Below, piece after piece: positions 5,104 to 47,436 of a stretch of DNA of 61,094 nt. The notes beneath the pieces were generated by a model. That model was not told the DNA's origin and ran no database searches. It saw nothing but the letters and a program-made list of their open reading frames with translations. Origin of the DNA: an uncultured virus (IMG/VR IMGVR_UViG_2061766007_000583) (lineage: Duplodnaviria; Heunggongvirae; Uroviricota; Caudoviricetes); the IMG/VR virus record IMGVR_UViG_2061766007_000583, one strand, 5' to 3'. Position numbers and translations under genes: made by a program. The stretch's first letter is position 1. Each line of letters opens with the position of its first letter.

Positions 5104-5124
5104 TTTTATAAAGGAGAAAAAACA

Positions 5125-5664: not shown

Positions 5665-5695
5665 TTAAATAAACTATAGAAAGGAATAAGAAACA

Positions 5696-6817
5696 ATGAA
5701 GCAATTTCAAAATGTAATTAAATATTCTGAATCTTGCGAGAATGCTAAAAAGTTAGTTAATATCGCTGAAGATTATGCAAAGACAAGAGCAAATGAAATG
5801 TTCCATACTACTTTTGCTACTTATGCAGTAAATAAAGAAGGAAAGACTATTGGTCTTGACGAGAAAGCAAAACAACTTAACGAAGTTTTCTGTTCAGAAC
5901 TTGAAAGACGTTCAAAGTATTCTGTAGCAGACTTTGATGGCGATGTTTATGCATATAGTGAGTTTGGTGCAGTTGCTGAAATGTCAGCACAGTTGCAGAA
6001 GATTATTGTAGATGCTATGACACCTATTCTTATTTCTGCTACAAATCTCGGTCTTATCGCAGAGTTTCACTATGGTGGATATGGCGATACATTCGAGTTT
6101 GAACTTACTGACCCTCTTCCTTACAAGGTTTCAAAGATGGGTGCTAGACAGAAGCATACAAAGACTCAAGAGAAGAAAAAGACAAACAAGACAATCGCTA
6201 CAGAGATGTATGGTTTAACAACATATACAACTCTTCCACAGATTTTACTTGGTGAGTCTATGTTAGCAGAAGATGCTTATAAGATGGCAATTTCTATTAA
6301 TAAGAAGATTTACACACTTGTTATTAAGAAATTCGTTTCAGCAGTTGAGACACTTGACGATTCTAGATTTGTTCAGACAAACTATAATGAGAAGGGTCTC
6401 CTTGAGAAACTTCGTAATGGTTCTGCATACAATGGTGAGCAGATGCTTGTTGTTGGTGATGCAGTAGCATTGAAGACACTCCTTCCTTCTGAACCAAAAG
6501 TTGAAATTCTTCTTTCTGATGATTTCAATACAAATCTTGGTTATATGTCAGTATGGAACACATACAAGGTTCTTGGTCTTGACGTAGTTGCTGACCCTGA
6601 TGAAACAAGTGGTGTTCTTGGACTTCCTACAAACAGAATTTATGGTATTCCCGTTAACGGAACAAAACTTGTTCAGGTTGCTATCGGTGCTACTATGACA
6701 AATACTGATGGTGAGTTCGAGAACAACAACCTTGCTATTCTCTCTACATTGAGAAAAGAAATCGGTGTTGAACTTGCAACTAACAAGAAGGTTGTTAAGT
6801 GTACTCTTGGTGCTTAA
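5696..6817 (+). CDS. Major capsid protein (phage A)
   Basis: 373 aa, position, strongly biased codon usage, followed by a long hairpin. Confidence 0.8.
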   Translation: MKQFQNVIKYSESCENAKKLVNIAEDYAKTRANEMFHTTFATYAVNKEGKTIGLDEKAKQLNEVFCSELERRSKYSVADFDGDVYAYSEFGAVAEMSAQLQKIIVDAMTPILISATNLGLIAEFHYGGYGDTFEFELTDPLPYKVSKMGARQKHTKTQEKKKTNKTIATEMYGLTTYTTLPQILLGESMLAEDAYKMAISINKKIYTLVIKKFVSAVETLDDSRFVQTNYNEKGLLEKLRNGSAYNGEQMLVVGDAVALKTLLPSEPKVEILLSDDFNTNLGYMSVWNTYKVLGLDVVADPDETSGVLGLPTNRIYGIPVNGTKLVQVAIGATMTNTDGEFENNNLAILSTLRKEIGVELATNKKVVKCTLGA

Positions 6818-6853
6818 TCAAGAATATAACTACCTTTGAGTAGTATAAAATAG

Positions 6854-6904
6854 ATTATCAGTGGTATTGTTAAATGTGACAGTGCCACTGATAATAGTAC
6901 ATAA
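6854..6904 (+). promoter_or_regulatory. 17-bp RNA stem-loop followed by GTACATAA (site 1)
   Basis: Stem 6854-6870/6879-6895 with two G-U pairs, no U-tract; GTACATAA at 6897-6904; RBS follows. Confidence 0.7.
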
Positions 6905-6924
6905 GAAAGGAATTATATTTAAAT

Positions 6925-7596
6925 ATGGCAAGACAGAAAAAGGCTGAAGAAAAGCCTATTGAAACAAAAGAAGCAAAGAATACTGTCGCAAAAAAAGAGA
7001 CAGTTGTAGAAGATAAAAAAGACAATGAATTAGAAAAACAAAATGCAGAACTTTTAGACTTAATTAAGAGTATGAAAGAAGAAATTAATAATTTGAAGGC
7101 TCAACAGTCAATTCAGCCACAAGTTATTGTTCAGCAGTCTGCTAATAATGATTTAACAAGAACTGTAAAGGTTACAAGTTTAATTGGAAATACTTATTTC
7201 TTATCAACACAACCTAATGGCAAAGGAGCAAGTTTTAGATTTGATAATTACGGTGATAGTTTAAATATTAAATTTACAGATATGCAGTCAATTCTTCAAA
7301 TTTATGGAAAACAGTTTGAAGAAGGATATGCAGTTCTTGGTAGTCAGAAAGATTATGAAGATTTAGGTGTAGGATATATGTATGATATGGTATTATCAAA
7401 AGATAAGTTTGATAAGTTATTACAACTTAAATCCGATAGTGATGTAGATATTATTCTTAATTTTAGCGATGATATGTTAGATAATATTTTAAGAATTATT
7501 GCTGAAAGAATTAAGAAGGGTGCAAATTACGATTATAATATTATCAATAGATTACAGAAAGAAACTGACTTGGAAGGATATATCAAGTTAGAGTAA
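6925..7596 (+). CDS. Hypothetical head-region protein (Lys/Glu-rich N-terminus, coiled coil)
   Basis: 223 aa ORF with RBS, immediately after capsid gene. Confidence 0.6.
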   Translation: MARQKKAEEKPIETKEAKNTVAKKETVVEDKKDNELEKQNAELLDLIKSMKEEINNLKAQQSIQPQVIVQQSANNDLTRTVKVTSLIGNTYFLSTQPNGKGASFRFDNYGDSLNIKFTDMQSILQIYGKQFEEGYAVLGSQKDYEDLGVGYMYDMVLSKDKFDKLLQLKSDSDVDIILNFSDDMLDNILRIIAERIKKGANYDYNIINRLQKETDLEGYIKLE

Positions 7597-7605
7597 ATAA
7601 CTCCG

Positions 7606-7657
7606 TAAAGAACTTATTGGGGTGTTCTTTAAATTTCTTTGCCCCATTCGTACATAA
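7606..7657 (+). promoter_or_regulatory. Predicted H-type pseudoknot followed by GTACATAA (site 2)
   Basis: S1 TAAAGAAC (7606-7613)/GTTCTTTA (7624-7631); S2 TGGGGT (7618-7623)/GCCCCA (7641-7646); GTACATAA at 7650-7657. Confidence 0.55.
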
Positions 7658-7684
7658 CAAATTTTTAAGAAAGGAGAATAAATC

Positions 7685-8161
7685 GTGACAAGTTTTGAAG
7701 AAATATATGACATATTTATGGTCACTTCTCTATCGGATTATAGATTAAATAATCTATATGTAAATGATAAAGAAGCATTTTACGATTTTTTACGAGGCTT
7801 TCTTACAAAATCTGCTTTTAAATTTTCAGACGAATTAATACATAAATTAGATTTTATATCACAAAAAGAACCGATTGAAGAAGGTAGTGAAGATACTGTT
7901 ACTAGATATTATTTCGTTAACGACTTATTGCCATTAGAAAAAACTATATTAGTTGATTCTATGGTAATTCATTGGTACGAAAAGAATACTGAAGATATAT
8001 TAGAAATGTCTTCACGTTTAGGTACTAAAGACGCTAAAGAAAATAATAATAGGTCTAATCTCAAAGAGAAAAATATTAGAATAAGAGAATTATATAGTGC
8101 TTTATATGCCGATATTAGAAACTTACAGTTGCAGAATTTAAATGCACTAGAAGGGTGGTAA
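7685..8161 (+). CDS. Putative head-tail connector/adaptor
   Basis: 158 aa helical protein in neck position; RBS AAAGGAG. Confidence 0.5.
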   Translation: MTSFEEIYDIFMVTSLSDYRLNNLYVNDKEAFYDFLRGFLTKSAFKFSDELIHKLDFISQKEPIEEGSEDTVTRYYFVNDLLPLEKTILVDSMVIHWYEKNTEDILEMSSRLGTKDAKENNNRSNLKEKNIRIRELYSALYADIRNLQLQNLNALEGW

Positions 8162-8162
8162 T

Positions 8163-9443
8163 ATGGTGCTATATGATAATTATTTAAAATATTTTAATAA
8201 AACACCTAATGAACAATATCGTGAAGATGTTCAAGCGTTTGTAGATGAAAGTTGGGATAATAATATTTTGATTGATAAAATCATATTAGAAGATTCTCCT
8301 AGAACTTTTAGTTATGAAGATAACAATATAGTAGAAGCATATATAGATAGTGTTAGTGAAGTATCAACAAACACTGCAAAGATAGAAGGAAACTATATAT
8401 CTGTATTGTTTAAAGATTGTTATTTTCAATACAATCGTGGTTCAATGTTTTATAGACCTAGTAATAAGAATTACTATATAGTATATCAGTCTACTAATGA
8501 TATGAGAACTATGTCTAAATGTAAAGCAATTCAATGTAATAATATTATAAAGTGGATTGATGTAGATAGTAAACAAATTATTGCATATCCTTGTTCTATG
8601 GGAAATGAATTAACTTCTACTACTTCGCAAGATTTAAAATTTATTTCAACTGCGAATGGGAGAATGGCAGTTATTGTATTTGGTAATGAATATACAAGAA
8701 AACTTGAATTAAATCAAAGAATTATATTTAACGGCGTTCCTTATAGAATTAATGCAATAAAGAATTATGAAGAGAATAATTTTGTTGACAGAGAAGTAGA
8801 ATTATTATTTTTATATCTTGAGAAAAGTTCAATTGAACCGACAGATGATTATATATATAATATTGCAAACTTTAAAGAATATGAATATTTAGTTGAAGTA
8901 AGTCAGAATGAAATAAAAGATATTATTGGTACAAAAGGAACTTTAACGGCTCAATTAACTTGTAATGGTGAAATAGTTAATGGTGCTAAATTTAAATGGA
9001 TTAGTGATGATATAAATGTTATCCAAATAGATAAGTATGGTAATTATGAAATAGTTGGAGAAATTGGAGATACTGCTAAAATTAAATGTTTATATATTGA
9101 TGATATATATGCAGAAGTTGAAGTAGAAGTAGTAGAAAATGTAGAAGATTTAGTCGAATTAAAGATAACTCCTAGTGATGATTCTATTGAAATATCAAAG
9201 AATACTTATCAAAACTTTATGTTTGAATTATATGTTAATAATGAAAAACAAAATGATGCAGTATTTACTTATATTGTAAATTTTGTTGATAATAATTATT
9301 ATACTATAATAGATAATAACGACCATAATGGCATAAGAGTTATTTGTCATAATGCTACAAAGCAGAAATTGATAATAACTGTAAATAATAATGAATACTC
9401 TATCAGCAAACAAATAAATATAAAATTGAAGGGAGTATGGTAA
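8163..9443 (+). CDS. Putative head closure/neck protein with C-terminal Ig-like domains
   Basis: 426 aa; Big_2-like motif (LTAQLTCNG..FKWISDD..QIDKYG); neck position. Confidence 0.5.
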   Translation: MVLYDNYLKYFNKTPNEQYREDVQAFVDESWDNNILIDKIILEDSPRTFSYEDNNIVEAYIDSVSEVSTNTAKIEGNYISVLFKDCYFQYNRGSMFYRPSNKNYYIVYQSTNDMRTMSKCKAIQCNNIIKWIDVDSKQIIAYPCSMGNELTSTTSQDLKFISTANGRMAVIVFGNEYTRKLELNQRIIFNGVPYRINAIKNYEENNFVDREVELLFLYLEKSSIEPTDDYIYNIANFKEYEYLVEVSQNEIKDIIGTKGTLTAQLTCNGEIVNGAKFKWISDDINVIQIDKYGNYEIVGEIGDTAKIKCLYIDDIYAEVEVEVVENVEDLVELKITPSDDSIEISKNTYQNFMFELYVNNEKQNDAVFTYIVNFVDNNYYTIIDNNDHNGIRVICHNATKQKLIITVNNNEYSISKQINIKLKGVW

Positions 9444-9444
9444 T

Positions 9445-10047
9445 ATGAATAACGGCAATTTTGATACTGCTTATAATACTGGTCAAGACATACCATACAT
9501 ACTTTCTAAAATATTTGAATTTCTAATTGAAGAAGGTAGTGAAAATTTTTGGAAAGCAATTTATTACAAAGATTATGACTGCCTTGACCAACCCAATTTA
9601 ACAATGTCAGAAAAAAGAAAATTAATTTACACCAATGGAAAAAATCTTAATGATTATAATATATATTTAAATGCTCCTTTAATATCCCCTGAAGAAGATA
9701 ATGCTAAAACAATATTAAAGGCATATATTTTAAGAGTTAAACCAATCACTCAAATGGATTTTGTAGTTTCATTTAATTTTGATATTATAACTCATACAAC
9801 CTTATCTAATATTGAAAAAGATACAGATATGGTTAGTAGAATAGACTTTATTGAGTCTGAATTAATTAGAATGTTAAATCAAAGAGATTTCTTTTTTGGT
9901 AGAATTAAGTTTGACCATAGGACTAGTACGGATGCTCATAGTATATTAGCATATAATAACTCTAATAACTTTTTTGGACGTTGCTTAACTATGGCAGTTT
10001 TAAATACTAGACACGATGAAAACATAGAATGTGAAGAAGTATGGTAG
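9445..10047 (+). CDS. Putative tail terminator/completion protein
   Basis: 200 aa, position before tail tube; assignment by synteny only. Confidence 0.4.
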   Translation: MNNGNFDTAYNTGQDIPYILSKIFEFLIEEGSENFWKAIYYKDYDCLDQPNLTMSEKRKLIYTNGKNLNDYNIYLNAPLISPEEDNAKTILKAYILRVKPITQMDFVVSFNFDIITHTTLSNIEKDTDMVSRIDFIESELIRMLNQRDFFFGRIKFDHRTSTDAHSILAYNNSNNFFGRCLTMAVLNTRHDENIECEEVW

Positions 10048-10841
10048 ATATTAAATTCTTAACTAAAAAATATTTTTCCAAAGGAAAACCTTGTCCATAT
10101 AAATTAAAATCTGACATTAAAATATTAATATATCCTATACTAGTTGAAGATTATGAGGATTACGAAGATAGTTTATCTGTTATTCAAATGGATAAAAATA
10201 ACGTCGGTATTCCCGAAGTAATTAGTATGTCACAATTAGAATATTTAAATTATGTATTTAGTGATAATACTGGTTTAGGCGAACAACAATTACAAATGTT
10301 TAAACAAATATTTTCTTTATGTTTAAAAGAAGATTATGTTGCGATAACGCAAGATAAAAATGGTAAATATGTTGTAGTTGTTGCTGAAAATGTCGTTGAT
10401 AACGGCAAAGAAGAATTTGTTTTAAAATATACTATATCTAATAAAGAATACTTGGATATAGTAAAAATTATTTTATATCAAAATGATTTAGATTATAATG
10501 ACGAATATGTTAATCCAGATGTAATGAAAGAGTATAATGAATATATGCAATTGAAATTTAAAGGATTAAGACAACCGACATTAGAAGAAAGAAAAGTATT
10601 TGTATTGGCTAGATATAAATGTTCTATTGAAGAAGTTAATAAAATGACAAAACGACTTTTTGATATGTTATATTCTGAATATATTGGAATAGAACAATAT
10701 TTTGTTGATGTTATGTATAAGACTTCAGAAAAGTTTGATATAAAAGAAAATATACAATATCCATTGTTCAAACCTAAAGAAGATAGATTTAAAGATTTGT
10801 TTATGAGTACAGATACTTTAAATAACAAATTAGGTAATTAA
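10041..10841 (+). CDS. Hypothetical tail-region protein
   Basis: 266 aa ORF overlapping the previous gene. Confidence 0.5.
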   Translation: MVDIKFLTKKYFSKGKPCPYKLKSDIKILIYPILVEDYEDYEDSLSVIQMDKNNVGIPEVISMSQLEYLNYVFSDNTGLGEQQLQMFKQIFSLCLKEDYVAITQDKNGKYVVVVAENVVDNGKEEFVLKYTISNKEYLDIVKIILYQNDLDYNDEYVNPDVMKEYNEYMQLKFKGLRQPTLEERKVFVLARYKCSIEEVNKMTKRLFDMLYSEYIGIEQYFVDVMYKTSEKFDIKENIQYPLFKPKEDRFKDLFMSTDTLNNKLGN

Positions 10842-10864
10842 TTATTATGTAAAGGAGATAAAAA

Positions 10865-11914
10865 ATGAATAGTTATATTCTTGGTTCTGTTGGTTATGCA
10901 GAAGGTTTTCTTAACGGACAGAGAGTTCTTAAATCTAAAACACTTTTAAATAACTCTATTTCATTTTCTGTTAACCCTACTGAAGTTCGTGGTGGTGAAG
11001 GTAATGCTCTTATCGGAACTTTATTCTTCGATTCAACATTTAATATGTCACTCGAAGATTCAACTTTCGCTCTTGAGTATCTTGCTTTAAAGACTGGTTC
11101 TAGCATCACTACTGGCGTAACTGATTGGGCTAGTGAGCAGATTACAGTTGCTACTGCTAATGAAATCACTGTTACTGGAACACCTGTTGATTTTGGTGGA
11201 TTTGGTAAGGTTGGATTTTATCGTGTAGCAGGTTCTGATGAAGAGCATCAGATTACATTTGTTGGAAAGACTGCTTCTGTAACTGGTCTTGCAGAAGGTA
11301 CAAAAGTTTGTGTATCATATAATGCAAACAATGCAAATGGTAGAGAAATCAAGATTGCTTCTAACTTTGTTCCTAGTGAACTTTATTTGTTAGTTCATAC
11401 ACCTTTATTTAAGGCAGGCTCTAATAGTACTTCTGAATCACAGAAGGTTGGTGAAGTAGTTATTGAAATTCCTAGATTTCTTATTGACCCTAGTGGAGAT
11501 TTATCACTTACTTCTAATGGTGTTGCTACAGTTCCTTTGAGTGGTTCTGCACAAGTATCTTATGATACAACACAGTCTTGTGACGATAAGGGATTCTATG
11601 GTAGAATTAAGGAAATCGTTACTAACGCTGATGTTCTTGCTAGTGCAAAGAATATTGTAGTTGCTGATTCAGATGTTGACCTTGAAGTTAACGAAGAGCA
11701 GACACTTGTTGTTTACGCTTTATTTGATGGCTTGACATTGCCTACAAAACTTGATAATGCTGATTTAACATTTACAAGTGGTACTGGAACAGTTGCTTCA
11801 GTAACTAGTGCTGGTGTCGTTAAGGGATTGGCAGAAGGTAGTTCAATTATTGACGTAGTTGTTACTAGCCATCCTACTCTCGTAGCAAAGGCAGTTGTTA
11901 CTGTTACGGCGTAA
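10865..11914 (+). CDS. Major tail (tube) protein with C-terminal Big_2 Ig-like domain (phage A)
   Basis: EVRGGEGN motif; C-terminal LTFTS..TVASVTSAGVVKGLAEGS Ig motif; high-expression codon bias. Confidence 0.8.
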   Translation: MNSYILGSVGYAEGFLNGQRVLKSKTLLNNSISFSVNPTEVRGGEGNALIGTLFFDSTFNMSLEDSTFALEYLALKTGSSITTGVTDWASEQITVATANEITVTGTPVDFGGFGKVGFYRVAGSDEEHQITFVGKTASVTGLAEGTKVCVSYNANNANGREIKIASNFVPSELYLLVHTPLFKAGSNSTSESQKVGEVVIEIPRFLIDPSGDLSLTSNGVATVPLSGSAQVSYDTTQSCDDKGFYGRIKEIVTNADVLASAKNIVVADSDVDLEVNEEQTLVVYALFDGLTLPTKLDNADLTFTSGTGTVASVTSAGVVKGLAEGSSIIDVVVTSHPTLVAKAVVTVTA

Positions 11915-11933
11915 TTAATGTAATATAATATAA

Positions 11934-11972
11934 AAAGGTGTGATTGAAATATATCACACCTTTAGTACATAA
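11934..11972 (+). promoter_or_regulatory. 11-bp stem, TGAAATAT loop, followed by GTACATAA (site 3)
   Basis: AAAGGTGTGAT (11934-11944)/ATCACACCTTT (11953-11963); GTACATAA at 11965-11972 overlapping RBS AAGGAG. Confidence 0.7.
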
Positions 11973-11986
11973 GGAGAAATAAGTAT

Positions 11987-12433
11987 ATGTGTCAATTTAC
12001 TTATTACAAAGAAGAAGAAAAAGGCACTTATTATCCACAATTATATTGTCATATAACAAATGGATTCTGTTTATACAGAAAAAGGTGCGTTAAAGAAGGT
12101 AAATTTATTTTAATAGATGGTGATAGTTGGAAGGATTGTTATATAATGAACGATTATTTATTTAAACAAGACGCTCCTAAAGGAGCATATAAAGTAGTTG
12201 CTCACAATGTTCGTAAAAGTGGTAAGGTTGAACTTTATGTGCGTATAGATTCTGATACTACAGTTAAAGTAGAAATTCCTAAAACAGATGAAATTCCTAC
12301 TTATGTATTTTTGGATAAAATAGGCACAGAATATAAAGTTCTTGATAAACCTAAAACTGAAGAAAAAGAAAAACCTAAAGTAGAAAAGAAAGAGACTACA
12401 AAGAAAGTTACTAACAACAAAAAGAAGAAATAG
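11987..12433 (+). CDS. Cys-rich hypothetical protein with Lys-rich tail
   Basis: Five Cys in the first ~50 aa (MCQF..YCH..FCLYRKRC..KDC); 2 nt upstream of mazF-like gene. Confidence 0.6.
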   Translation: MCQFTYYKEEEKGTYYPQLYCHITNGFCLYRKRCVKEGKFILIDGDSWKDCYIMNDYLFKQDAPKGAYKVVAHNVRKSGKVELYVRIDSDTTVKVEIPKTDEIPTYVFLDKIGTEYKVLDKPKTEEKEKPKVEKKETTKKVTNNKKKK

Positions 12434-12435
12434 TA

Positions 12436-12795
12436 ATGGCTAAAAGGAAAATTAAACAAGGCGATATTTATATGGTTTCTTTTGATGATACAATAGGTTG
12501 TGAACAAAGTGGGGTTCGCCCTGCTTTAATAATTCAAAATGATTGGGGCAATGAATGTAGTCCTACAACGATTATTCTTCCTATAACTAGTAAAAATAAA
12601 AATATTTTACCTACTCATTATGTTTTATTTAAAAACAAATATCCTTCTCTATCTTTTGAGTATAATATAGTTCTCGGCGAACAAATAAGATGCATAGACA
12701 AAAAAAGACTAGAGAGAAAAGTTTGTAGTATTGATAAGGAAGATATTACCAATATTATAAAAATATTAAATCAGAACTTTATATTAACAGATTAG
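12436..12795 (+). CDS. mazF: PemK/MazF-family endoribonuclease (NdoA/EndoA-like)
   Basis: KQGDIYMV..GCEQSGVRPALIIQNDWGN..SPTTIILPITS..H..EQIRCIDKKRL matches the Firmicutes MazF pattern; catalytic Arg (RP) and Thr (PITS) are present. Confidence 0.9.
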   Translation: MAKRKIKQGDIYMVSFDDTIGCEQSGVRPALIIQNDWGNECSPTTIILPITSKNKNILPTHYVLFKNKYPSLSFEYNIVLGEQIRCIDKKRLERKVCSIDKEDITNIIKILNQNFILTD

Positions 12796-12809
12796 AAGGG
12801 AAACGAGTA

Positions 12810-13289
12810 ATGGAACAATTTGATATGCTAGTAGATAGAGTTAATGCTATCGAAAAAAAAGAAAATGAAGACATTAAAGAAATTAATGATAAGATTGGTA
12901 AAATGAATGTCGAATTAGAGAAGAATAATCTTTTAACACAACAGAATATTGAAACATCAAAAGAACTTTCAAGTACAATGTCAACAATAAAAGACACGAT
13001 GATTACAATGACAGAATCAATAAAACATTCAAATCAAGTGTCGGAAAATTTATCAAATAATGTAGATAGATTAACAGTGCAGATTAAAAATGTTGACGAA
13101 AAATTTGAGAAAAAAGTTAATGAAACAAACGAAAAAATCAAATCAATAGATGATAAAAGCAAGATAGATATTGTTGAAGTTCAGAAAGATGGTATTAAAA
13201 CAGAGATAGTTAAATATCTGATAACTGGCGGTCTTGGATTAGGTGTCGGTGCTTTTATTCTTAAACTATTGGAGACTTTTATTAAATAG
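12810..13289 (+). CDS. Coiled-coil protein with C-terminal transmembrane helix
   Basis: Long heptad region then YLITGGLGLGVGAFILKLL; function uncertain (holin/XhlA-like architecture). Confidence 0.5.
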   Translation: MEQFDMLVDRVNAIEKKENEDIKEINDKIGKMNVELEKNNLLTQQNIETSKELSSTMSTIKDTMITMTESIKHSNQVSENLSNNVDRLTVQIKNVDEKFEKKVNETNEKIKSIDDKSKIDIVEVQKDGIKTEIVKYLITGGLGLGVGAFILKLLETFIK

Positions 13290-13298
13290 GAGTTATAT

Positions 13299-13715
13299 AT
13301 GAAAATAGAAAAGAATTATTTAACTACTAGTGAAATCAGATATATCGGTCAAATGTTGATTGATTTGGAAGATTCTGATTTTATGACTAGAGAATATATT
13401 AAGTATTTGACTATTGCAGATTTTTGTACTGACTTTAAGTTAGATACTGATAAAGACGAGAACGGTAATGATACTGTTACTTGGAAAGAAGAAAAATATA
13501 ATGAACTTTGGGCTAATGGAGATATTGAAGTTTTAGACAAGGAGATTAAGAACGCATATCTTATTGATATGTATGTTGATGATAAACAGAGTACATATAA
13601 CTTATTTAAAGAACTTGGAAACCAACTTACTGAATCTGTTAAAAACTTTAATATTGACGAGACCAAAGAAGTTATGAAACAATTTAGTGATTTAGTCGAT
13701 AAAGAAAAGAAGTGA
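13299..13715 (+). CDS. Hypothetical protein (possible tail assembly chaperone)
   Basis: 138 aa acidic ORF between tail tube and TMP. Confidence 0.45.
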   Translation: MKIEKNYLTTSEIRYIGQMLIDLEDSDFMTREYIKYLTIADFCTDFKLDTDKDENGNDTVTWKEEKYNELWANGDIEVLDKEIKNAYLIDMYVDDKQSTYNLFKELGNQLTESVKNFNIDETKEVMKQFSDLVDKEKK

Positions 13716-13721
13716 TAAGAT

Positions 13722-14246
13722 ATGGCAACTTGGGCTGGAAAACATGACGTTGAAGATTTTGAACAGTTAGAATTTTCTATAGGTGCTGAAACTTCTGAAA
13801 TATTGGAATATGTTATGGAATATGTTGTCCTTCCACAATTACAAGATTATATTGAAAGAGATGTTTATAATTATCATGGACAACTTTCTGAAGATTTTTG
13901 GGATGGAAGAAGTGGTGATTTTAAAAGGGCTTGGAAAATTAAAGTTCAAAGACAAGGTTTTTATAATAATATAGAATTGTATATAGATGAAGATGAATTT
14001 TCTTATCAAATGTCACATTCACTTTCTCATATGACAGATAGTGCTAGTGGATTGGCAGAAATTATTAACGAAGGTTGGAACTCAACCTCTTATCCATTTC
14101 CACCTTATAATTTTCCAGCAATGTATGCAAGACCATATTGGGATGATTTTATTGAATGGATGAATAATAATTTTGAAGAAGAATTTATAAAAGAATGTAA
14201 TAGGCGTGGTTTAAATATGGTTATTACTGGAGATTTAAGTTTTTAG
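13722..14246 (+). CDS. Putative neck/tail completion protein (HK97 gp10-like)
   Basis: Motifs DVY..RSGDFKRAW, LAEIINEG and ARPYW. Confidence 0.45.
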   Translation: MATWAGKHDVEDFEQLEFSIGAETSEILEYVMEYVVLPQLQDYIERDVYNYHGQLSEDFWDGRSGDFKRAWKIKVQRQGFYNNIELYIDEDEFSYQMSHSLSHMTDSASGLAEIINEGWNSTSYPFPPYNFPAMYARPYWDDFIEWMNNNFEEEFIKECNRRGLNMVITGDLSF

Positions 14247-14250
14247 ATAA

Positions 14251-14289
14251 AGAAAAAAGAGATTACTTTTTAGGTAATCTCTTTTTTTA
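14251..14289. terminator. Intrinsic, probably bidirectional terminator
   Basis: AAAAAAGAGATTAC-tttta-GGTAATCTCTTTTTTT. Confidence 0.75.
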
Positions 14290-14306
14290 CTTTTAAGGAG
14301 AAGCAT

Positions 14307-14879
14307 ATGAAATGTTTAAGTATAGACGCTTCAAGTACTTGTATAGGTTGGGCTTTGTGGAATGACGATAAGTTATTACAATATGGAAAGATAAAACCTG
14401 AAGATGAAAATGCTCATTGGAGAGAAAGAATTAAATCTCTTTTATTTCAGTTAGATAAAATTATGAAAGATAATAAGCCTAAAAAGGTTTATTGTGAAGA
14501 TGTTCCTTTAATGAATAAGGGTGGTAAAGCCACATTAGTCGTTTTAGGAGCAGTACAAGGCTCTATATTAGGTTTATGTGCTTCAAACGATATAATTATC
14601 GACTTCATTAATGTAGGACACTGGAGAAGCCGTATAGGGCTTTATAACGGCACTGAAAAAGGTAAGGAAAGAGATAATTTAAAAGTTGCTTCAATAAATC
14701 TTGCTAATAAGTTGTTTGATATAGATTTGAATTGTGTATTAACCAAAAGTGGAAGATATAATGAGAAGAAATCTGACGACGATATAGCAGATAGTATTTT
14801 ATTGTATGCAAGTAATTTTGATAAATATTGCAATAAGCAAAGACAAAAAGGAAAATTTGGTGGGAAGGGGGATAAGTAA
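14307..14879 (+). CDS. RuvC-like Holliday junction resolvase
   Basis: LSIDASSTCIGWA, VYCED and DDDIADSI RNase H-fold catalytic motifs. Confidence 0.8.
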   Translation: MKCLSIDASSTCIGWALWNDDKLLQYGKIKPEDENAHWRERIKSLLFQLDKIMKDNKPKKVYCEDVPLMNKGGKATLVVLGAVQGSILGLCASNDIIIDFINVGHWRSRIGLYNGTEKGKERDNLKVASINLANKLFDIDLNCVLTKSGRYNEKKSDDDIADSILLYASNFDKYCNKQRQKGKFGGKGDK

Positions 14880-15901
14880 TGATTGCTCAAAGTGCTAACG
14901 GAAATAGATATAATATTAAAGTTGGTGCTACATTCGTAGGTCAAACTCAATTAGCACAAAATTTAAGAGAAGCAATAAGAAATCTAGAAAAAACTTCTAC
15001 TATTACAACTAAATTAAAGTTAAAAGGTGGAGAAGAAGCAACAAGAGTTTTAATTAAGTATAAAGATGTTCTTGGTCAAGTATCTGAAAGAGAAAAAATA
15101 TTGACTAAAGATGGTAAGACATTAAGCGATACTATTGTTAAAACTTCTAGTGCAGTAAATGATATACGTAGTACATTTGGTAGATTAAATAAAGAAACCG
15201 AAACTAATGTAAGTGCAACTGGTAGACTTATAACTAGAACTAAAGAATATAGAGATGGTGTTCTTGAATGTGTTAATGTTACTCAACAATGGACTAATAC
15301 TAATGGTCAACTAGTAACGCAAGTAGATAAATTAGATGCTAATGGTAAAAAGTTAGCAGACACACAAACAAAAATAACTCAAAGTACTCATAATTCTACT
15401 ACTGAAATAAATAAATACGTTGATGCTCAAGGTAGAGAGATTACTGAAATTACAAAACTTAATGCTCAACGTGACGGAGAAGTAGAAAGAATTATAAAAG
15501 CAAAAACTGCTGAAGGTGGATTAATTACAACTACTGAAAAATTAAGAGTTTATCGTGGACAAGAATTAGAACAAACACGAGAAGCAACTCATGTGATTGA
15601 AAGAAACACTCAAGCAACTCAAGAAAATACTAATGCTCAACAAAATTTAGGTAATGCTTTTAAACAACAATTGGGTGCTATTGATGATTTTGTTTCTACT
15701 ATGGGTAAGGTAATTAAATTCCAAATTATAACAAAGATTATAACTGGATTTACTACGGCTTGTAGAGAAGCAATTCAAGTTGTTACTGAATTTGATTCTG
15801 CATTAACAGAATTTAAAAAAGTGTCTGATTTAAGTGGAGATGCACTTGATTCATATACTCAAAAATTAGGTGAATTAGGCGAAGCAGTTGCAAGAACTCG
15901 T
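14879..15901 (+). CDS. Tape measure protein, exon 1 (phage A)
   Basis: Ends ...EFDSALTEFKKVSDL..LGEAVARTR at U15901, the 5' splice site. Confidence 0.85.
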
Positions 15902-16147
15902 AAACATTTGTTGTGCGAGAACGTATAGTAATATGCGTTAAGAATCTGTCTAAAACCCAAAGTTCCTAAAGCCATAACAACTACAAAGCAACGATGAAAT
16001 AAGCGTAAACTTGAATGTGGGAAACCGTAAAAATGTTATGGATGATATATGGTTGAAAAACCTAACTATTGTAACAATGGATAATGGGTAGCGAAGTTCC
16101 GAAAAGGAATGTGTTGAACGACTATCCTTTGCAATCAATATTTTATA

Positions 16148-16176
16148 TTGACAAATATAACTAATTATGATATAAT
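16148..16176 (+). promoter_or_regulatory. Consensus sigmaA promoter inside the intron
   Basis: TTGACA-17 bp-TATAAT with extended TG, upstream of the endonuclease ORF. Confidence 0.75.
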
Positions 16177-16311
16177 TAGAATAAGGTAACTGAAATGTTA
16201 CACGAAGCATATAGGAGTACACTCTAACGCTTATGAGTGGAAAAGGCAGACCCCAGCAATGGGTGAAGAAATAGTCTAATCATATATGAAAATATATGGA
16301 GGTTGTTATTA

Positions 16312-17357
16312 ATGAATGAAAACGAATTAATAGAAAAATTTAAAAATAAAGAATTAATATTGTTAAATCCAAAAGATTATAAAAATAATAAAACAAAATT
16401 AACATCTTATGATAAAGAAGGTTATTATTATTATTTTAATTTAAATTCNNNNNNNNNNNNNNNNNNNNNNNNNNNNNNNNNNNNNNNNNNNNNNNNNNNN
16501 NNNNNNNNNNNNNNNNNNNNNNNNNNNNNNNNNNNNNNNNNNNNNNNNNNNNNNNNNNNNNNNNNNNNNNNNNNNNNNNNNNNNNNNNNNNNNNNNNNNN
16601 NNNNNNNNNNNNNNNNNNNNNNNNNNNNNNNNNNNNNNNNNNNNNNNNNNNNNNNNNNNNNNNNNNNNNNNNNNNNNNNNNNNNNNNNNNNNNNNNNNNN
16701 NNNNNNNNNNNNNNNNNNNNNNNNNNNNNNNNNNNNNNNNNNNNNNNNNNNNNNNNNNNNNNNNNNNNNNNNNNNNNNNNNNNNNNNNNNNNNNNNNNNN
16801 NNNNNNNNNNNNNNNNNNNNNNNNNNNNNNNNNNNNNNNNNNNNNNNNNNNNNNNNNNNNNNNNNNNNNNNNNTTGTTAAAGATGGAGTATATAAAGAAT
16901 ATCCAACATTATATTGTAAATGTAGTTGTGGAAAAGAATTTAATACAAATATATCTTCAATTAAAAGTGGACAATATAGGTNNNNNNNNNNNNNNNNNNN
17001 NNNNNNNNNNNNNNNNNNNNNNNNNNNNNNNNNNNNNNNNAAAATAATAACATAAATTTTGAATGTCAAAAAAGATTTGATGAATGTAAAGATATTAAAA
17101 CATTACCATTTGATTTTTATATAAAAGATTTAAATATTTGTATAGAGATAGATGGAGAACAACATAATAAAATAGTTAAATATTCTAATAATTCAAATTC
17201 TGAATTAGAGTTTAAAAAGAGAAAATATCACGATGAAATAAAAAATAAATTTTGTAAAGAAAATAATATTAAATTAATAAGAATACCACAAAAATTTATT
17301 GAAAGAAATCATACTGAATATATAGATATATTATATAACAATCTCATTAAGAAGTAG
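16312..17357 (+). CDS. Intron-encoded homing endonuclease, Vsr-like/EDxHD-type (gapped)
   Basis: RBS GGAGG 16298-16302; CKCSCG motif; C-terminus after the gap reads FECQKRFDECKDIKTLPFDFYIKDLNICIEIDGEQH..HDEIKNKFCKENNIKLIRIP, stop at 17355-17357. Confidence 0.8.
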
Positions 17358-17380
17358 CGATTCTTAATAAATATTAATTG

Positions 17381-20300
17381 ACACAAATGGTTGAAGCCTC
17401 AACTCAATTCAAGAAATCAGGTTTTAGCGATGAAGATTCTGCTCAATTAGCACAAGTGTCAAGTTTGTATCAAAATATAGCAGATAGTGAAATGTCGGCT
17501 GGAGATAGTGCTACATTTATTATCTCTCAAATGAAAGCGTTTAAGAATGAATTTGAAGATTTTAATACAGAAGCAGAAAAAGCAACACATATTATTAATG
17601 CAATAAATGAAACTTCGAATCACATGGCTGTATCATCTACAGATATTGCTACTGCTTTAAGTAAAACTTCTAGTGCTATGTCAGCATTAGGAAATAGTTA
17701 CGAAGAAAGTATTGCACTTGTTGTAAGTGGCACGGAAATCATGCAAGGACAAGCCTCGAAGGTTGCTCGTGGTCTTCGTAGTTTCGGAAACCAAATTGCA
17801 AAAATTGCAAGTAGTGCTGGTGAACTTGATTTTGAAGTACAAGGTGCAACAAAGTCTATAGCCCTTATGGGTTCAGATGGAAATCTTAAATCAACATATC
17901 AAGTATTAAAAGAAATATCAGAAGAATGGGATAATATGACGACTGCCGAAAGACAAGCGTTAGGTATCTCATTGGCTGGTAAAACACAGTTTGAAGTATT
18001 TACTTCAGTTTTAAACAACTTTGAAGGTGCAGAGAAAGCATTAACTCTTGCTACTGAATCACAAAATTCAGCATGGAAAGAAAATGCTAGATATATGGAA
18101 AGTATTGAAGCCAAATATCAAGCATTAAAGACTGCAACTGAAAACCTTATATTAGGTGATGGTGGACTTGAAAAATTAGTTAAAATTATTTTAACTGTTA
18201 CAACTGCAATAGTTAATTTTATTGATAAGGCTGGTGGTTTAACTACAGTAATTGGTGCATTAACTAGTGCTTTAATATTGCTTAATTCAAAAGCAATAAT
18301 GAAAATGATAATGTCATTTCCTTTATTGTGGGAACAAATAAAATTAACTACTACTGCATATATAGAATTTGCTACTACTGCAAGTACGGCAAATGAAATA
18401 TTAACTGCAAGTGTTCCTATTGTTGGTATTGTAATAGCAGTATTAACTGCATTATTTGGTGCATTAGTATTATTATATAAACAAATAACTGTAACAGTTG
18501 ATGAAATACAAGAATTAGGACAGAAGTTTTCTAACGAAAAAGGAGAAATTGAAGACTTAACTAAACAAGTAGATAGGTTAAGAGAAAAATTAAAGAAACT
18601 TCAAGAAGTAGAATCTCCTACTATTATTGAACAAAAAGAAATAGATAAAACCGAGTATGAAATTGCTCAACTTGAGAGAGAACTTGCACTTAAAGAAAAG
18701 ATTGCCCAAAAAGATAAAGAAAAACTTACAAAACAAGTTGAAAAACAAGTTTATGGTTATGGTGCTTTTGGTGGCTATGGTTTAGGTGGAGTATTTGATA
18801 ATAGTTTTGATGCTGAATTAACTAAAAGTAGTGGAGAACTCCTTGTTTCAGCAAGTAGACTTACTGGAATAGATTATCAAGGTAAACAAGGATATCAAAG
18901 AGTTGAAGCATATAGACAGATACAAGAAGAATTATCTAAATTAATAGTTCAATATCACGAAGAACAAAAGACACTTGATGAATCTAGTAGTAAATATAAA
19001 GAATTAGAATTTAAAATACAAGAATGTCAGTCGGCTTATGATAAAATTGATGAACATTTACCTAGTGTAGTTCAGAAATTAGATAGTCTTACTGAAGGGC
19101 TTGATGAAAATAGTGTTTTATATCAAATTATAAAAGATACTGTTAATGATTATACTGATTCTTTAATTGAAAATCAAGAAGTACAAACAAAAAGTAACGA
19201 TATTGATGAATATATTCAGCAAACTCTTAATGATGTTGCAGATAAATATCAACTTAATGCTGAACAAATTGAAGAACTCAATGCAATAGTCAAAGAAGCA
19301 ATAGAAAATAAAAGTGACGAAGAAGATGCTTATGAAGTTGCACAAAATGCTATTGATAATTATATTGATAGTATTGAAGGTGGTATTGATGCGTGGGAAA
19401 GATGGAATGAAACATTAGACACTATTCAATCAGCATATGAAACACTTTCTGGTGCAGTAGAAGAATATAATGAGACTCAAGCATTTACTATTGATACAGT
19501 TCAATCATTATTGAATTTAGGAAGCGATTATTTGTCATTACTCGATTTTGAGAATGGTAAATTAAGTCTTAATAAAGAAGCAATAATGGAAAAGGTTAAG
19601 GCTCAAATTGAAGAAGCCAAAGCCACTGTATATCAAGAAGCAGTTGATAGACTTGAAGCATTAGCAAAAGATAAAGTAATTGAAGCAAGTAAATCTTCTG
19701 TAGCACAAATTTCTAATGAAACTACGGCTTTAAAAGAAAATACTAGTGCTACATTAGAGAACTCTGAAGCAAAATTAAAGAATGCAATTAATAGAGCATA
19801 TGCTGAAGGAGTAACTCAAGAAGAAGTTAATAAAGTAGTCTCTGATATGAATAAACAATTGAAGATACTTGACGAATTAACTTTAAGTGTTGGTAATAGT
19901 TTTGAATCTTCAATGTCAAAAGCAAAGACTTCAACTCAAAGAGCGAAGGAAGAAGTTAATAAAACTAAAGAAGCCGTAAATGCTCTTAAACAAGAAGTAG
20001 AAGACCTTAAAGATGAAATATCAGATTATGATAAAGTAATCTCTTATATTAACGGAAAACTTGATGATGAAATAGATAGACTTGAAGATTTAAGAGACAA
20101 AGAAGTTGAAGCAATTGAAAAGCAAATTGATGAACTTGAAGCCCTTCAAAAGAAAGAAGAAGAAGAAGCAAAAGCAAGGATTAAATTCCTTGAACAAGAA
20201 CGTGATGCTTTAATTGATAATAATAAACTTCAGATTAATTATCTTCAAGAGAGACAGAATGCTGAAGAAGAATATTGGAATAACAAAATACAAGCCCTTA

Positions 20301-21625
20301 AAGACCAAAATAATGCTCTTCAAGACCAAGTAAGTTTGGAACAGTTACTTGCCAATCTTGAGAAAGCAAAGAATACTAAAATTAGAGTATATAAACAAGG
20401 TCAAGGATTTGTATGGGACACAGATTCTGAAGCAGTAACAAAGGCTCAACAACAATTAGACGAATATAATCGTAAAAAGGCGTATGAGCAACAATTAAAT
20501 GAGTTAGAGAATTATAAGAAAAATGCCTTAAAGAATTATGAAGACCAAATAAATGATTTAAAGACTCTTAATGATAATATTAAAAATCAATATGATAAAC
20601 AAATAACAATAATCAATAATCATATCGATGCACAAAAGACTAAATATAATGCTCAAATACAAGCACTTAATGATTTAATTGCTAAAATTAAAGCCAATTA
20701 TCAAGTTCAGATTGATTATTTTAATAATTATAAAACTGAATTTAATAAACAAGTTAAGGCTTATGAAACAGAGCAGAATAGATTACTTGCATTGCAAAAG
20801 ACTGGTATTGATTTTGAGAATGAGAATTGGAAGACAAGACTTAATAACTTAAATAGATTCACTACTGAATATAATAATAAACTTGCTGAATTAAGTAATA
20901 AACAGAAACAGTTAGCAGAACTTGAGAGACAATTAAATTCTAGTTCTTCTTCTAGTTATAGTTCAAGTTCAAGTGGTGGTAGTGGTGTTGGAAGTGTTGG
21001 TACTACTGGGGCTAGTGTATCATCTGTAAGAACTAAAACTGTTTATGTAGTTAATGGTAGAGAATATCAAAGTTATAATGAAGCAGTATCGGCTAGAGAT
21101 GCTAGTAATAGTTCTATTCAGTCACAGATTAATAATCTTACGGCTCAAAAGAATAGAGTTAAAACTGGTAATACTACTGCTGATGAAGCACAGAAGCGTG
21201 GAATACAATCACAGATTGATTCACTTGAAAGACAAAAAGTAGGTATTTCAAGTAAAACAGTTGCATATGCAAGTGGTGTTGCTTCTATTGGAAGTAATCA
21301 ATTTGCTATTGTTGGTGATAATCCCAATAAAGAACTTGTTATTGGTTCAAAACTTAATGGATTAGGATTAAATCTTGCAAAAGGAACGGGAGTAGTTAAT
21401 GCTAAATCTACAGGAACTTTAGCAGGGTTATTTAATATGTTAGGTGGAGAATTAAGTAAAGGTATTAATGGAAACTATAGTCTTTCTAATAATAATACTC
21501 AAAGTTCTAACAATATTCATATTGATAATATTTCATTACCACAAGTTAGAGATGCTGATGATTTTATTAATGCAATATCTAACTTTCAAAATATAATGGC
21601 ACAGAAATCTTATGCTATAATATAA
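17381..21625 (+). CDS. Tape measure protein, exon 2 (spliced product 1755 aa)
   Basis: TP901-type TMP motifs, hydrophobic segments, long coiled coils, C-terminal AYASG..IVGD..ELV. Confidence 0.88.
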   Translation, partial: TQMVEASTQFKKSGFSDEDSAQLAQVSSLYQNIADSEMSAGDSATFIISQMKAFKNEFEDFNTEAEKATHIINAINETSNHMAVSSTDIATALSKTSSAMSALGNSYEESIALVVSGTEIMQGQASKVARGLRSFGNQIAKIASSAGELDFEVQGATKSIALMGSDGNLKSTYQVLKEISEEWDNMTTAERQALGISLAGKTQFEVFTSVLNNFEGAEKALTLATESQNSAWKENARYMESIEAKYQALKTATENLILGDGGLEKLVKIILTVTTAIVNFIDKAGGLTTVIGALTSALILLNSKAIMKMIMSFPLLWEQIKLTTTAYIEFATTASTANEILTASVPIVGIVIAVLTALFGALVLLYKQITVTVDEIQELGQKFSNEKGEIEDLTKQVDRLREKLKKLQEVESPTIIEQKEIDKTEYEIAQLERELALKEKIAQKDKEKLTKQVEKQVYGYGAFGGYGLGGVFDNSFDAELTKSSGELLVSASRLTGIDYQGKQGYQRVEAYRQIQEELSKLIVQYHEEQKTLDESSSKYKELEFKIQECQSAYDKIDEHLPSVVQKLDSLTEGLDENSVLYQIIKDTVNDYTDSLIENQEVQTKSNDIDEYIQQTLNDVADKYQLNAEQIEELNAIVKEAIENKSDEEDAYEVAQNAIDNYIDSIEGGIDAWERWNETLDTIQSAYETLSGAVEEYNETQAFTIDTVQSLLNLGSDYLSLLDFENGKLSLNKEAIMEKVKAQIEEAKATVYQEAVDRLEALAKDKVIEASKSSVAQISNETTALKENTSATLENSEAKLKNAINRAYAEGVTQEEVNKVVSDMNKQLKILDELTLSVGNSFESSMSKAKTSTQRAKEEVNKTKEAVNALKQEVEDLKDEISDYDKVISYINGKLDDEIDRLEDLRDKEVEAIEKQIDELEALQKKEEEEAKARIKFLEQERDALIDNNKLQINYLQERQNAEEEYWNNKIQALKDQNNALQDQVSLEQLLANLEKAKNTKIRVYKQGQGFVWDTDSEAVTKAQQQLDEYNRKKAYEQQLNELENYKKNALKNYEDQINDLKTLNDNIKNQYDKQITIINNHIDAQKTKYNAQIQALNDLIAKIKANYQVQIDYFNNYKTEFNKQVKAYETEQNRLLALQKTGIDFENENWKTRLNNLNRFTTEYNNKLAELSNKQKQLAELERQLNSSSSSSYSSSSSGGSGVGSVGTTGASVSSVRTKTVYVVNGREYQSYNEAVSARDASNSSIQSQINNLTAQKNRVKTGNTTADEAQKRGIQSQIDSLERQKVGISSKTVAYASGVASIGSNQFAIVGDNPNKELVIGSKLNGLGLNLAKGTGVVNAKSTGTLAGLFNMLGGELSKGINGNYSLSNNNTQSSNNIHIDNISLPQVRDADDFINAISNFQNIMAQKSYAII

Positions 21626-21629
21626 TATA

Positions 21630-21669
21630 AAAGAAGGAGTTGAAATATACTCCTTCTTTAAGTACATAA
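21630..21669 (+). promoter_or_regulatory. 11-bp stem, TGAAATAT loop, followed by GTACATAA (site 4)
   Basis: AAAGAAGGAGT (21630-21640)/ACTCCTTCTTT (21649-21659); GTACATAA at 21662-21669. Confidence 0.7.
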
Positions 21670-26889: not shown

Positions 26890-26897
26890 AATAATTG

Positions 26898-26926
26898 TTG
26901 ACAAATTATAATACTTATGTTATAAT
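26898..26926 (+). promoter_or_regulatory. Consensus sigmaA promoter before the tail fibre gene
   Basis: TTGACA-17 bp-TATAAT with extended TG. Confidence 0.6.
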
Positions 26927-26943
26927 AGAAAGGAAAAATAAAT

Positions 26944-27918: not shown

Positions 27919-28028
27919 GGGGGAGAGATAAATGAGTTTATATTACAAACAAAAACTAATAAGTGGAGTGCGAGATGTACCTTCAATGACATTAGCACAA
28001 NNNNNNNNNNTGATTAAGGAGAACGCAA

Positions 28029-47291: not shown

Positions 47292-47358
47292 AATACTGTC
47301 TCCTTTTTTCTTCATAATAACAAAAATTGTAATCCTATGCAACTTTTTTGTATTTATA

Positions 47359-47415: not shown

Positions 47416-47436
47416 AAATCAAAGAAAGGAGAAGAA

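Follow-up and report, generated by a model that had tools for sequence, protein, structure and literature searches.

The late operon of an uncultured siphophage carries a recurrent RNA element in which a hairpin is followed by the hexamer UACAUA and then by the Shine–Dalgarno (SD) sequence of the next gene. The operon lies in the first part of IMG/VR record IMGVR_UViG_2061766007_000583, a stretch of 61,094 nucleotides that is referred to below, at its full length, as the window. The element is real and conserved and, judged from sequence, is probably a MazF-type processing site: its invariant intergenic word, TACATA, is exactly the hexamer of EndoA-type MazF nucleases, and a mazF gene is found in the same operon. 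It is fairly likely that an enzyme of the MazF family cuts at the sites. The fuller reading, that UACAUA marks cleavage sites at which the late polycistronic RNA is split next to protective hairpins and that the phage MazF acts there, is tentative, and the phage's own MazF can be put forward as the main actor with similar reserve.

What MazF nucleases do in the cell has been a matter of debate for two decades; solitary toxins borne by phages are usually classed as morons of unknown use. The elements described here would provide a phage MazF with a concrete set of substrates, namely a conserved single-stranded UACAUA that has a protective hairpin on one side and the ribosome-binding site of the next gene on the other, with mazF in the same operon. 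If cleavage takes place, a nuclease of a toxin family would determine the ratios of virion proteins by processing mRNA, and the purging of UACAUA from the genes of many Gram-positive phages would be accounted for. Cultured models are on hand in the Enterocloster phage PMBT24 and the Lactobacillus phages ATCCB and Lenus.

Hairpin–UACAUA elements of the late module

Bases 1–28,000 of the window (24–32% GC) come from a large siphophage and comprise its late (virion) module, which spans 737–26889 and has all of its genes on the + strand. The module contains the C-terminal part of a terminase, portal, capsid and tail tube genes, a tape measure gene in two parts, and genes for fibres. The 8-mer GTACATAA occurs on the + strand in four of its intergenic regions (Table 1), with further copies at 1315, within the terminase gene, and at 59690. 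The raw count is unremarkable (six against 2.79 expected, a number that 4 of 100 shuffles reach); it is the placement of the copies, rather than their count, that stands out. At all four intergenic copies a hairpin ends 0–2 nt upstream and the next start codon follows 15–28 nt downstream, with an SD between. The late module has six non-intron gaps of at least 40 nt. Hairpin, GTACATAA and SD are present in four of these, at positions that a first-pass annotation of the sequence had given and that were all verified. The fifth gap (14247–14306) is a canonical T-run terminator and the sixth (26890–26943) is a consensus sigma-A promoter (TTGACA-17-TATAAT). Within the 45-nt windows upstream of late genes, which comprise 644 non-coding nt, TACATA occurs four times and takes rank 1 of 60 letter permutations.

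Table 1. Positions of the hairpin–UACAUA elements and of associated features in the window.
Feature	Position	Strand	Remarks
Hairpin 1	6854–6895	+	3′ of capsid gene (5696–6817); constrained fold −25.8 kcal/mol; ends 1 nt before motif
GTACATAA site 1	6897–6904	+	core UACAUA 6898–6903; SD AAAGGA next; start codon 6925; unpaired in minimum-free-energy fold
Hairpin 2	7618–7646	+	3′ of 223-aa gene; 7 pairs including two G–U; 15-nt loop
GTACATAA site 2	7650–7657	+	SD AAAGGAG; GTG start codon 7685
Hairpin 3	11934–11963	+	3′ of tail tube gene (10865–11914); 11 pairs; loop UGAAAUAU
GTACATAA site 3	11965–11972	+	abuts SD (AAGGAG) of Cys-rich gene + mazF unit
Cys-rich protein gene	11987–12433	+	148 aa, Lys-rich tail; ends 2 nt before mazF; translationally coupled
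mazF	12436–12795	+	119 aa; PF02452 90.1 bits (cut-off 23.1), E 1.3e-25; phrog_1936 at 7.3e-27
Canonical bidirectional terminator	14252–14288		motif-free internal contrast; 14253–14287 called on − strand; T-run on both strands
Hairpin 4	21630–21659	+	3′ of tape measure gene; 11 pairs; loop UGAAAUAU
GTACATAA site 4	21662–21669	+	SD AAAGGAG; start codon 21695 (tail fibre gene)

The stems of the four hairpins are unrelated in sequence, one of them contains G–U pairs, and the loop TGAAATAT is common to hairpins 3 and 4, whose stems differ, all of which agrees with the earlier description. The motif is unpaired in minimum-free-energy folds, those of sites 1 and 2 among them. Covariance models of Rfam 15 gave no match at E ≤ 1 in window 1–28000. 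The hairpins had also been described as lacking a proper U-tract, and on terminator scoring none of the four is terminator-like on the + strand, though sites 3 and 4 end in TTT; these two sites are called as terminators on the − strand only. Intrinsic termination was rejected as the function of the four hairpins, there being no terminator call for them on the + strand.

Conservation of the element in related phages

Scans of IMG/VR with single capsid and tube protein sequences found no relatives. Relatives were found through a capsid alignment (84 capsid protein homologues in metagenomes), the search with which gave 10 IMG/VR loci, 18 metagenome loci and two contigs of metagenome-assembled genomes at capsid identities of 44–90% (52–90% for full-length matches). 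The larger related contigs measure 57–106 kb. The clade consists of siphophages of ~60–105 kb and includes the cultured, virulent Enterocloster phage PMBT24 (99,962 bp), which was found by a MazF search. The late module of PMBT24 is syntenic with that of the window gene for gene, and the two capsid proteins are only ~24–27% identical.

Of 12 lineages with sequence 3′ of the capsid gene, 11 have a hairpin with TACATA at that place; the exception is PMBT24, which has a plain terminator instead, and a thirteenth contig ends inside GTACAT. Ahead of the mazF unit, hairpin and UACAUA are found in seven of seven lineages (the window at 11965, L031 at 11627, L032 at 16300, G001 at 29407, G002 at 25655, G003 at 34830 and PMBT24 at record position 28359), so that the placing of site 3 in front of this unit, first noted in the window, holds throughout. 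In PMBT24, TACATAA also occurs immediately ahead of an SD where no hairpin tightly abuts it; the copy in front of mazF is an example.

The anatomy of the sites was compared in a pooled set made up of the first 28 kb of the window and 14 of 15 related sequences (L048 was excluded; G003 and L010 are near-duplicates). Here 35 of 45 intergenic + strand copies of GTACATA are separated by 0–2 nt from the end of a preceding hairpin whose fold reaches at least −8 kcal/mol in strength; of the 44 copies in genes or on the other strand, only 6 are so placed (Fisher P = 7e-10). A motif-blind scan of intergenic hairpins was too noisy to count, with coding ends falling in the windows and stem extension absorbing the motif, and no figure from it is used. 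The flanks of the motif hold less than 0.8 bit per base, and the base after GTACATA in the 35 sites is A in 16, T in 12, G in seven and C in none. The leading G is lost and TACATA retained in L034 (GTTACATAA) and at 18359 and 31945 of G003 (TTACATA), and sites of PMBT24 have A, T or C ahead of TACATA. Across the sites compared, the invariant core of the element is TACATA and not the 8-mer, which the first-pass annotation had described as identical at the four sites: its G is dropped at several orthologous sites, and its eighth base may be A, T or G.

The base pairing of the stems is conserved independently of their sequence. In L031 and L032 the loop of hairpin 2, TTCTTT(T)AA(A)TTTCTT, is kept and the stem changes from GGGGTG/TGCCCC to GGGCAGTTA/TAACTGCCC. 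Hairpin 3 and six further sites with a UGAAAUAU loop show compensatory changes in seven of seven inner pairs; 98% of the cells in this set are paired, and none of 500 shuffles matches it. These sites were picked for forming hairpins, and the result is that stems differ while pairing and loop persist, not an unbiased discovery. The covariation of the stems, together with the G–U pairs, points to an element that acts at the level of RNA, and the strand-specific conservation agrees with the RNA-level role that had been proposed from the window alone. The loop UGAAAUAU (once UUAAAUAU) is invariant on sequence-unrelated stems at non-orthologous sites, at 11945–11952 and 21641–21648 of the window, 15799 of G002, and 26881 and 42237 of G003.

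Sites 3 and 4 of the window share ~20 nt of flank in addition to the loop, as would be expected if the four copies were a dispersed repeat of no function, multiplied through recombination or as a mobile hairpin. Such an origin is hardly credible, since the stems differ between copies and orthologous sites retain only TACATA and base pairing across the divergence of the capsid to ~24–27% identity. Literature searches turned up no published description of the hairpin–UACAUA–SD arrangement, and the words MazF, interferase and toxin do not occur in the PMBT24 genome paper.

The phage MazF and the hexamer U^ACAUA

The family match of the protein encoded at 12436–12795 confirms that a mazF gene resides in the same operon as the sites. 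Its best relatives among solved structures are S. aureus MazF, B. subtilis EndoA and B. anthracis-type chains (E ~1e-20), whereas MazF9, Kid and E. coli MazF are matched at E values of only 1e-6 to 1e-4. By these matches the phage MazF is nearer to the UACAUA-cutting Bacillota subgroup than to MazFs of other specificity. Residues R28 and T51 align to R25 and T48 of the B. subtilis enzyme, which we take to be its catalytic arginine and threonine, and they are invariant in seven clade sequences. The gene is found at the syntenic place in all seven lineages for which the region is available, and a ratio of nonsynonymous to synonymous substitution rates (dN/dS) of 0.03–0.11 demonstrates strong purifying selection.

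The in-vivo site of B. subtilis EndoA is U/ACAUA; the cut is made only when A follows, leaves a 5′-OH and is lost in an ndoA deletion (PMC11780869). A further report gives U^ACAUA as the preferred hexamer common to L. monocytogenes, S. aureus and B. subtilis MazF and describes mazEF of UACAUA specificity as widely conserved in Bacillota (bioRxiv 10.64898/2026.08.06.743204). A recognition word longer than the pentamer UACAU had been suspected from the window, and the conserved core does correspond to the 6-nt site of these three enzymes.

The product of the gene that follows mazF (12810–13289) is a coiled-coil protein that ends in a membrane segment at its C-terminus. Its equivalent in PMBT24 is followed by a holin, which suggests that mazF may adjoin lysis-related genes.

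UACAUA in coding regions and 5′ untranslated regions

Occurrences of UACAUA on the coding sense strand were counted and compared with a null of synonymous-codon shuffles. This null replaced a maximal-order Markov test, in which neither TACAT nor TACATA was depleted. The hexamer is scarce in the genes of several phages that carry mazF: two copies were observed and 14.1 expected in the late genes of PMBT24, 6 and 16.6 in its early genes, 1 and 8.7 in ATCCB, and 6 and 16.3 in Lenus. In ATCCB the UACAU pentamer is present nine times against 36.4 expected. The reverse complement of UACAUA is never depleted, and a depletion limited to the sense strand indicates that the pressure acts on RNA. Readings at the level of DNA, such as restriction avoidance, are ruled out by this strand specificity.

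Upstream of genes the hexamer is enriched. When TACATA is compared with 60 permutations in windows of the 5′ untranslated regions (5′UTRs), it takes rank 1–2 in the window, L031, L032, G001, G002, G003 and PMBT24, and rank 1 in Lenus, which has 11 such sites. The unrelated, mazF-carrying Lactobacillus phage ATCCB (L054) has hairpin–TACATA–SD sites at 2538, 4686 and 11530. Within phages, the enrichment is restricted to late operons. In the 45 nt upstream of genes in the late regions of the window, L032, G002, G003 and PMBT24, TACATA, GTACAT and ACATAA are among the top enriched hexamers after SD-like and A/T-rich words; the same three words are not enriched upstream of genes in the early regions of G002, G003 and PMBT24 or in the second phage of the window.

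Two further placements of the word were seen. Many intergenic regions of ATCCB contain a recurrent TATAAT, ~12 nt and (G)TACATA on the strand opposite to the genes, and in Lenus, SEP9 and Perkons UACAUA is also found a short way 3′ of −10 boxes of sigma-A type, and hence close to where primary transcripts begin.

Transcription of the late genes

An 831-aa protein of PMBT24 matches YonO of phage SPbeta (E 7e-19) and contains the DFDGD motif; homologues are present in G001–G003. This homologue of YonO-type single-chain RNA polymerases heads the late module, at 324–2819 in PMBT24 (L051), ~3.5 kb in G001, ~1–2.7 kb in G002 and ~12–13.7 kb in G003. A HU-like gene comes after it in PMBT24, and YonO-like genes are also found in TR-TP1/2 and Perkons, likewise mazF carriers. 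In SPbeta, YonO initiates at a single site from which the late genes are transcribed as one operon, and it is without the flap domain of hairpin-dependent termination (PMC5467207); these properties provide a rationale for processing of the late RNA.

The first-pass annotation had named as its main alternative that the motif is the −10 element of a late promoter. This is contradicted by the spacing of motif, SD and start codon. An SD was called at 34 of the 35 sites, and in 10 of these it begins 0–3 nt beyond the motif; a start codon was likewise called at 34 sites, and in 9 of them its distance from the motif is only 10–16 nt. A −10 element of a sigma-dependent promoter is excluded by these distances, and the would-be −35 region is a variable stem.

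A signal for the phage polymerase deserves more weight than the −10 reading. Hairpin and GUACAUA could be a pause, terminator or start site for the YonO-like enzyme, or a late promoter of a phage sigma factor, and the match to the MazF hexamer would then be a coincidence. The elements are specific to late operons and co-oriented with transcription; they follow genes for abundant products, where attenuators are expected; the clade encodes a homologue of YonO, for whose promoter or terminator signals the element is a candidate; and PMBT24 is annotated with a SigK-like sigma factor. A transcription signal is nevertheless decidedly unlikely. ATCCB, Lenus, VPE25 and SEP9 are not among the 41 records that match YonO, yet show the same arrangement, and the early genes of PMBT24 are also depleted of UACAUA. 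Moreover, PMBT24 has copies of the motif with no hairpin just upstream of the SD, and a conserved 6-mer would equal one given hexamer by chance about once in 4096 cases. A sigma factor would in addition meet the difficulties of spacing and of the variable stem described above.

Phage or host MazF

Several observations weigh against cleavage at these sites by the phage enzyme. The protein is ~42% identical to EndoA (as counted on the alignment), its cleavage of U^ACAUA is predicted only, and the MazF proteins of G001–G003 differ in the EQIR segment. The comparison of k-mer counts per gene with a codon-shuffled null, which had been proposed as a check on the first-pass annotation, gave no depletion of UACAUA in the late genes of the window, with seven copies observed and 8.1 expected; L031, L032 and G003 are likewise not depleted. 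The seven in-gene sites of the window would then also be cut, or the enzyme would need context beyond the hexamer. Conversely, VPE25 (3 observed, 15.4 expected), SEP9 (11 and 34.7) and phiLM33 (10 and 24.9) are depleted without having mazF. These three phages also keep a few hairpin–TACATA–SD sites (ranks 5, 3 and 2 of 60, respectively), while Ldl1 and TR-TP2 carry mazF and have no 5′UTR enrichment (both rank 15 of 60). The occurrence of the pattern in phages that lack mazF suggests that the nuclease may be a host MazF, or that a general selective pressure is at work. In SPbeta, moreover, the late stem-loops have U-tracts and none abuts UACAUA. Finally, one assembled RNA contig bridges site 3.

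That contig comes from metatranscriptomes, two runs of which contain short assembled contigs over the decoration and capsid genes, 6989–7200, the tube gene and 12721–12871; DNA runs cover the region evenly. Assembled contigs carry neither RNA ends nor levels, and these contigs are neither support for nor refutation of processing.

The seven in-gene copies of UACAUA in the window are distributed over terminase, portal, 158-aa, 200-aa, 138-aa and fibre genes. In a post hoc grouping of the decoration, capsid, tube, tape measure, 927-aa and 387-aa genes, none of 14 TACAT pentamers is followed by A. The pentamers that had been listed by eye as TACATT (5523, 6745 and 11254) and as GTACATA (1143, 1315 and 13591) are correct, but a further TACATT at 6088 had been overlooked.

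An alternative is that the chromosomal MazF of the host, and not that of the phage, cuts the sites. Host MazF would be a constant hazard to the phage or a defence against it; phages would then purge UACAUA from their genes and keep it between a protective hairpin and the SD, where a cut is harmless or useful, and the phage mazF would serve host shut-off, exclusion of competing phages, or activity in hosts without MazF. This would explain the 2.5–5-fold depletion on the coding strand of VPE25, SEP9 and phiLM33 and their hairpin–TACATA–SD sites. Host MazEF restricts mutants of SPbeta and phi3T, and the cell is not killed (bioRxiv 10.1101/2023.04.27.537455), and the reported wide distribution of UACAUA-specific mazEF in Bacillota is in line with such a role (bioRxiv 10.64898/2026.08.06.743204). 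Against this, the absence of coding depletion in the window lineage would be odd under a constant hazard from host MazF. Within one phage the sites are restricted to late operons, where the phage mazF resides, and mazF is retained in seven of seven lineages, each with a site ahead of it. A host MazF as the sole agent is for these reasons considered unlikely.

The expectation that element and mazF would co-occur in relatives was borne out in part: the two are found together in seven of seven lineages, but the same architecture is present in VPE25, SEP9 and phiLM33, which share a DnaE-type polymerase with ATCCB. The arrangement is a wider property of large Bacillota siphophages, stronger on average in those with a phage mazF and not confined to them. 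A closed system of phage MazF and its own sites, as first envisaged, is not established, since relatives without mazF show the same architecture and depletion.

The Cys-rich neighbour of MazF

A gene for a Cys-rich protein accompanies mazF in every relative. It is located immediately upstream, either overlapping mazF or 2 nt apart from it, and PMBT24 has an extra gene between the two. Residues C2, C21, C28, C34 and C51 are invariant in the alignment. The protein belongs to no Pfam or PHROG family, a feature-based Atlas search gave no usable match, and the Atlas model gave weak structural neighbours. In the AlphaFold model (mean predicted local distance difference test score, pLDDT, of 61) residues 61–125 alone are confident; the C-terminal half is modelled as a small β-barrel whose fold matches are weak (Z ≤ 4.9) and are to generic OB-like barrels.

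No antitoxin family was recognised among the late proteins of the window, the neighbours of mazF, or 98 small open reading frames of the complete relative G003. The earlier description of this MazF as lacking an antitoxin is nevertheless unproven, given that a conserved Cys-rich gene is coupled to mazF.

The Cys-rich protein, or a factor that binds the hairpin loop, is also a candidate reader for a site at which UACAUA is bound by a protein or by the ribosome and is not cut, whether it serves to control or enhance translation as an operator or enhancer, to provide a standby site, or to determine mRNA stability. The fixed position 0–25 nt upstream of the SD, the invariance of the loop UGAAAUAU on unrelated stems, and the modelled C-terminal β-barrel and Lys-rich tail of the Cys-rich protein would all suit such a role. 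The strand-specific purging of UACAUA from the coding regions of several related phages is better explained by a destructive activity, and the fold matches of the Cys-rich protein are weak (Z < 5). We know of no UACAUA-binding factor, and a bound but uncut site is held to be quite unlikely.

Proposed processing of the late RNA and comparison with known systems

Cleavage by the phage MazF can be set out as follows. The late genes would be made as a long polycistronic RNA in a clade that encodes a YonO homologue. MazF from the same operon would cut at U^ACAUA, which is single-stranded and follows each hairpin closely on the 3′ side. Upstream of the cut, the cistron (capsid, the 223-aa gene, tail tube or tape measure) would be left with a 3′ hairpin that should block 3′ exonucleases, and the downstream cistron with a 5′-OH and a leader as short as ~20 nt in which the SD is intact. 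The message levels of neighbouring genes would thereby be uncoupled, and the site ahead of the unit of Cys-rich gene and mazF would permit feedback. Of the interpretation that the first-pass annotation had offered, the structured RNA elements, the recognition word longer than UACAU and the mazF of the same operon have found support in the relatives and in the known hexamer; the 8-mer is not the conserved unit, and the closed phage system is not established.

B. subtilis EndoA/MazF (NdoA) and the MazF proteins of S. aureus and L. monocytogenes resemble the phage MazF in belonging to PF02452, in including its closest solved relatives, in the invariant Arg and Thr and in a hexamer that lies within the phage motif. 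They are, however, chromosomal type II toxins paired with MazE, whereas the phage mazF is part of a late structural operon, has no recognisable MazE and is coupled to the Cys-rich gene.

The phage-encoded endoribonuclease RegB of T4 cuts GGAG in the intercistronic or SD regions of early mRNAs, and in doing so destroys the SD and inactivates the early messages. The mechanism proposed here would similarly employ a phage nuclease and a short word, on the phage's own polycistronic mRNA and near ribosome-binding sites. RegB, in contrast, removes the SD in early mRNA, and the word considered here is upstream of an intact SD, beside a protective hairpin, in late mRNA. At the RNase III sites of phage T7 intercistronic hairpins split a long transcript and 3′ hairpins stabilise the products; the enzyme is that of the host and cuts in the double-stranded stem with no fixed word. 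The hairpins of the present clade are likewise intercistronic, but what does not vary in them is a hexamer that lies beyond the stem and is single-stranded. In the type III toxin–antitoxin system ToxIN a nuclease of MazF/Kid-like fold has as its substrate a structured RNA whose gene lies immediately ahead of that of the nuclease, and this RNA, ToxI, consists of tandem 36-nt repeats that bind the toxin. The hairpin and UACAUA that always precede the mazF unit are similar in position; they differ in that each site occurs singly and the sites are scattered among structural genes.

The clade is distantly related to the SPbeta group, with which it shares a YonO homologue, a HU-like gene and a YopX domain. 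MazF activity on phage RNA matters for SPbeta and phi3T: both phages produce inhibitors of MazF, and MazF sites are enriched in the transcripts of both (bioRxiv 10.1101/2023.04.27.537455). The present clade differs in carrying the nuclease itself.

A broader scheme can be imagined, in which a widespread clade of large Bacillota siphophages has domesticated a MazF toxin as punctuation of the late operon. A giant YonO-type transcript would ignore hairpin terminators, and dosage would be set by MazF cuts at hairpin–UACAUA–SD sites, the mazF feedback site among them, possibly with the Cys-rich β-barrel protein guiding or restraining the enzyme. UACAUA would then be a general cut signal in the 5′UTRs of many Gram-positive phages, served by host or phage MazF. 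In this full extent the scheme is somewhat unlikely.

Composition of the window

After a run of N (28001–28010) the remainder of the window has 35–41% GC and belongs to a different, temperate phage, which has no part in the finding. This second, unrelated phage (28011–61094) has an integrase (45869–46840), a CI-like repressor (46842–47546), TerL (39703–41352) and its own head genes, including portal, protease and capsid, together with a tape measure fragment. The junction at the N-run implies that the IMG/VR record may be composite. DNA of window 5001–13000 gave no match among 50,697 phage records, and part of the window DNA is contained in 20 runs of ruminant gut metagenomes from 14 studies.

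The window starts inside a LAGLIDADG-type open reading frame (EGYFDGDG at ~130–165), which is followed by non-coding DNA, and the region 1–1975 is partly N-masked. The terminase reading frame (737–1975) matches large-terminase profiles in its C-terminal part only, and the terL gene looks as if it has been split by an intron or by insertion of a homing endonuclease. The tape measure gene is in two parts, 14879–15928 and 17378–21625, separated by a 1.4-kb insert that contains a 250-aa reading frame behind a perfect TTGACA-17-TATAAT promoter (16148–16176). A DNA contig from another metagenome joins 16304 to 17341 and represents an allele without most of this insert.

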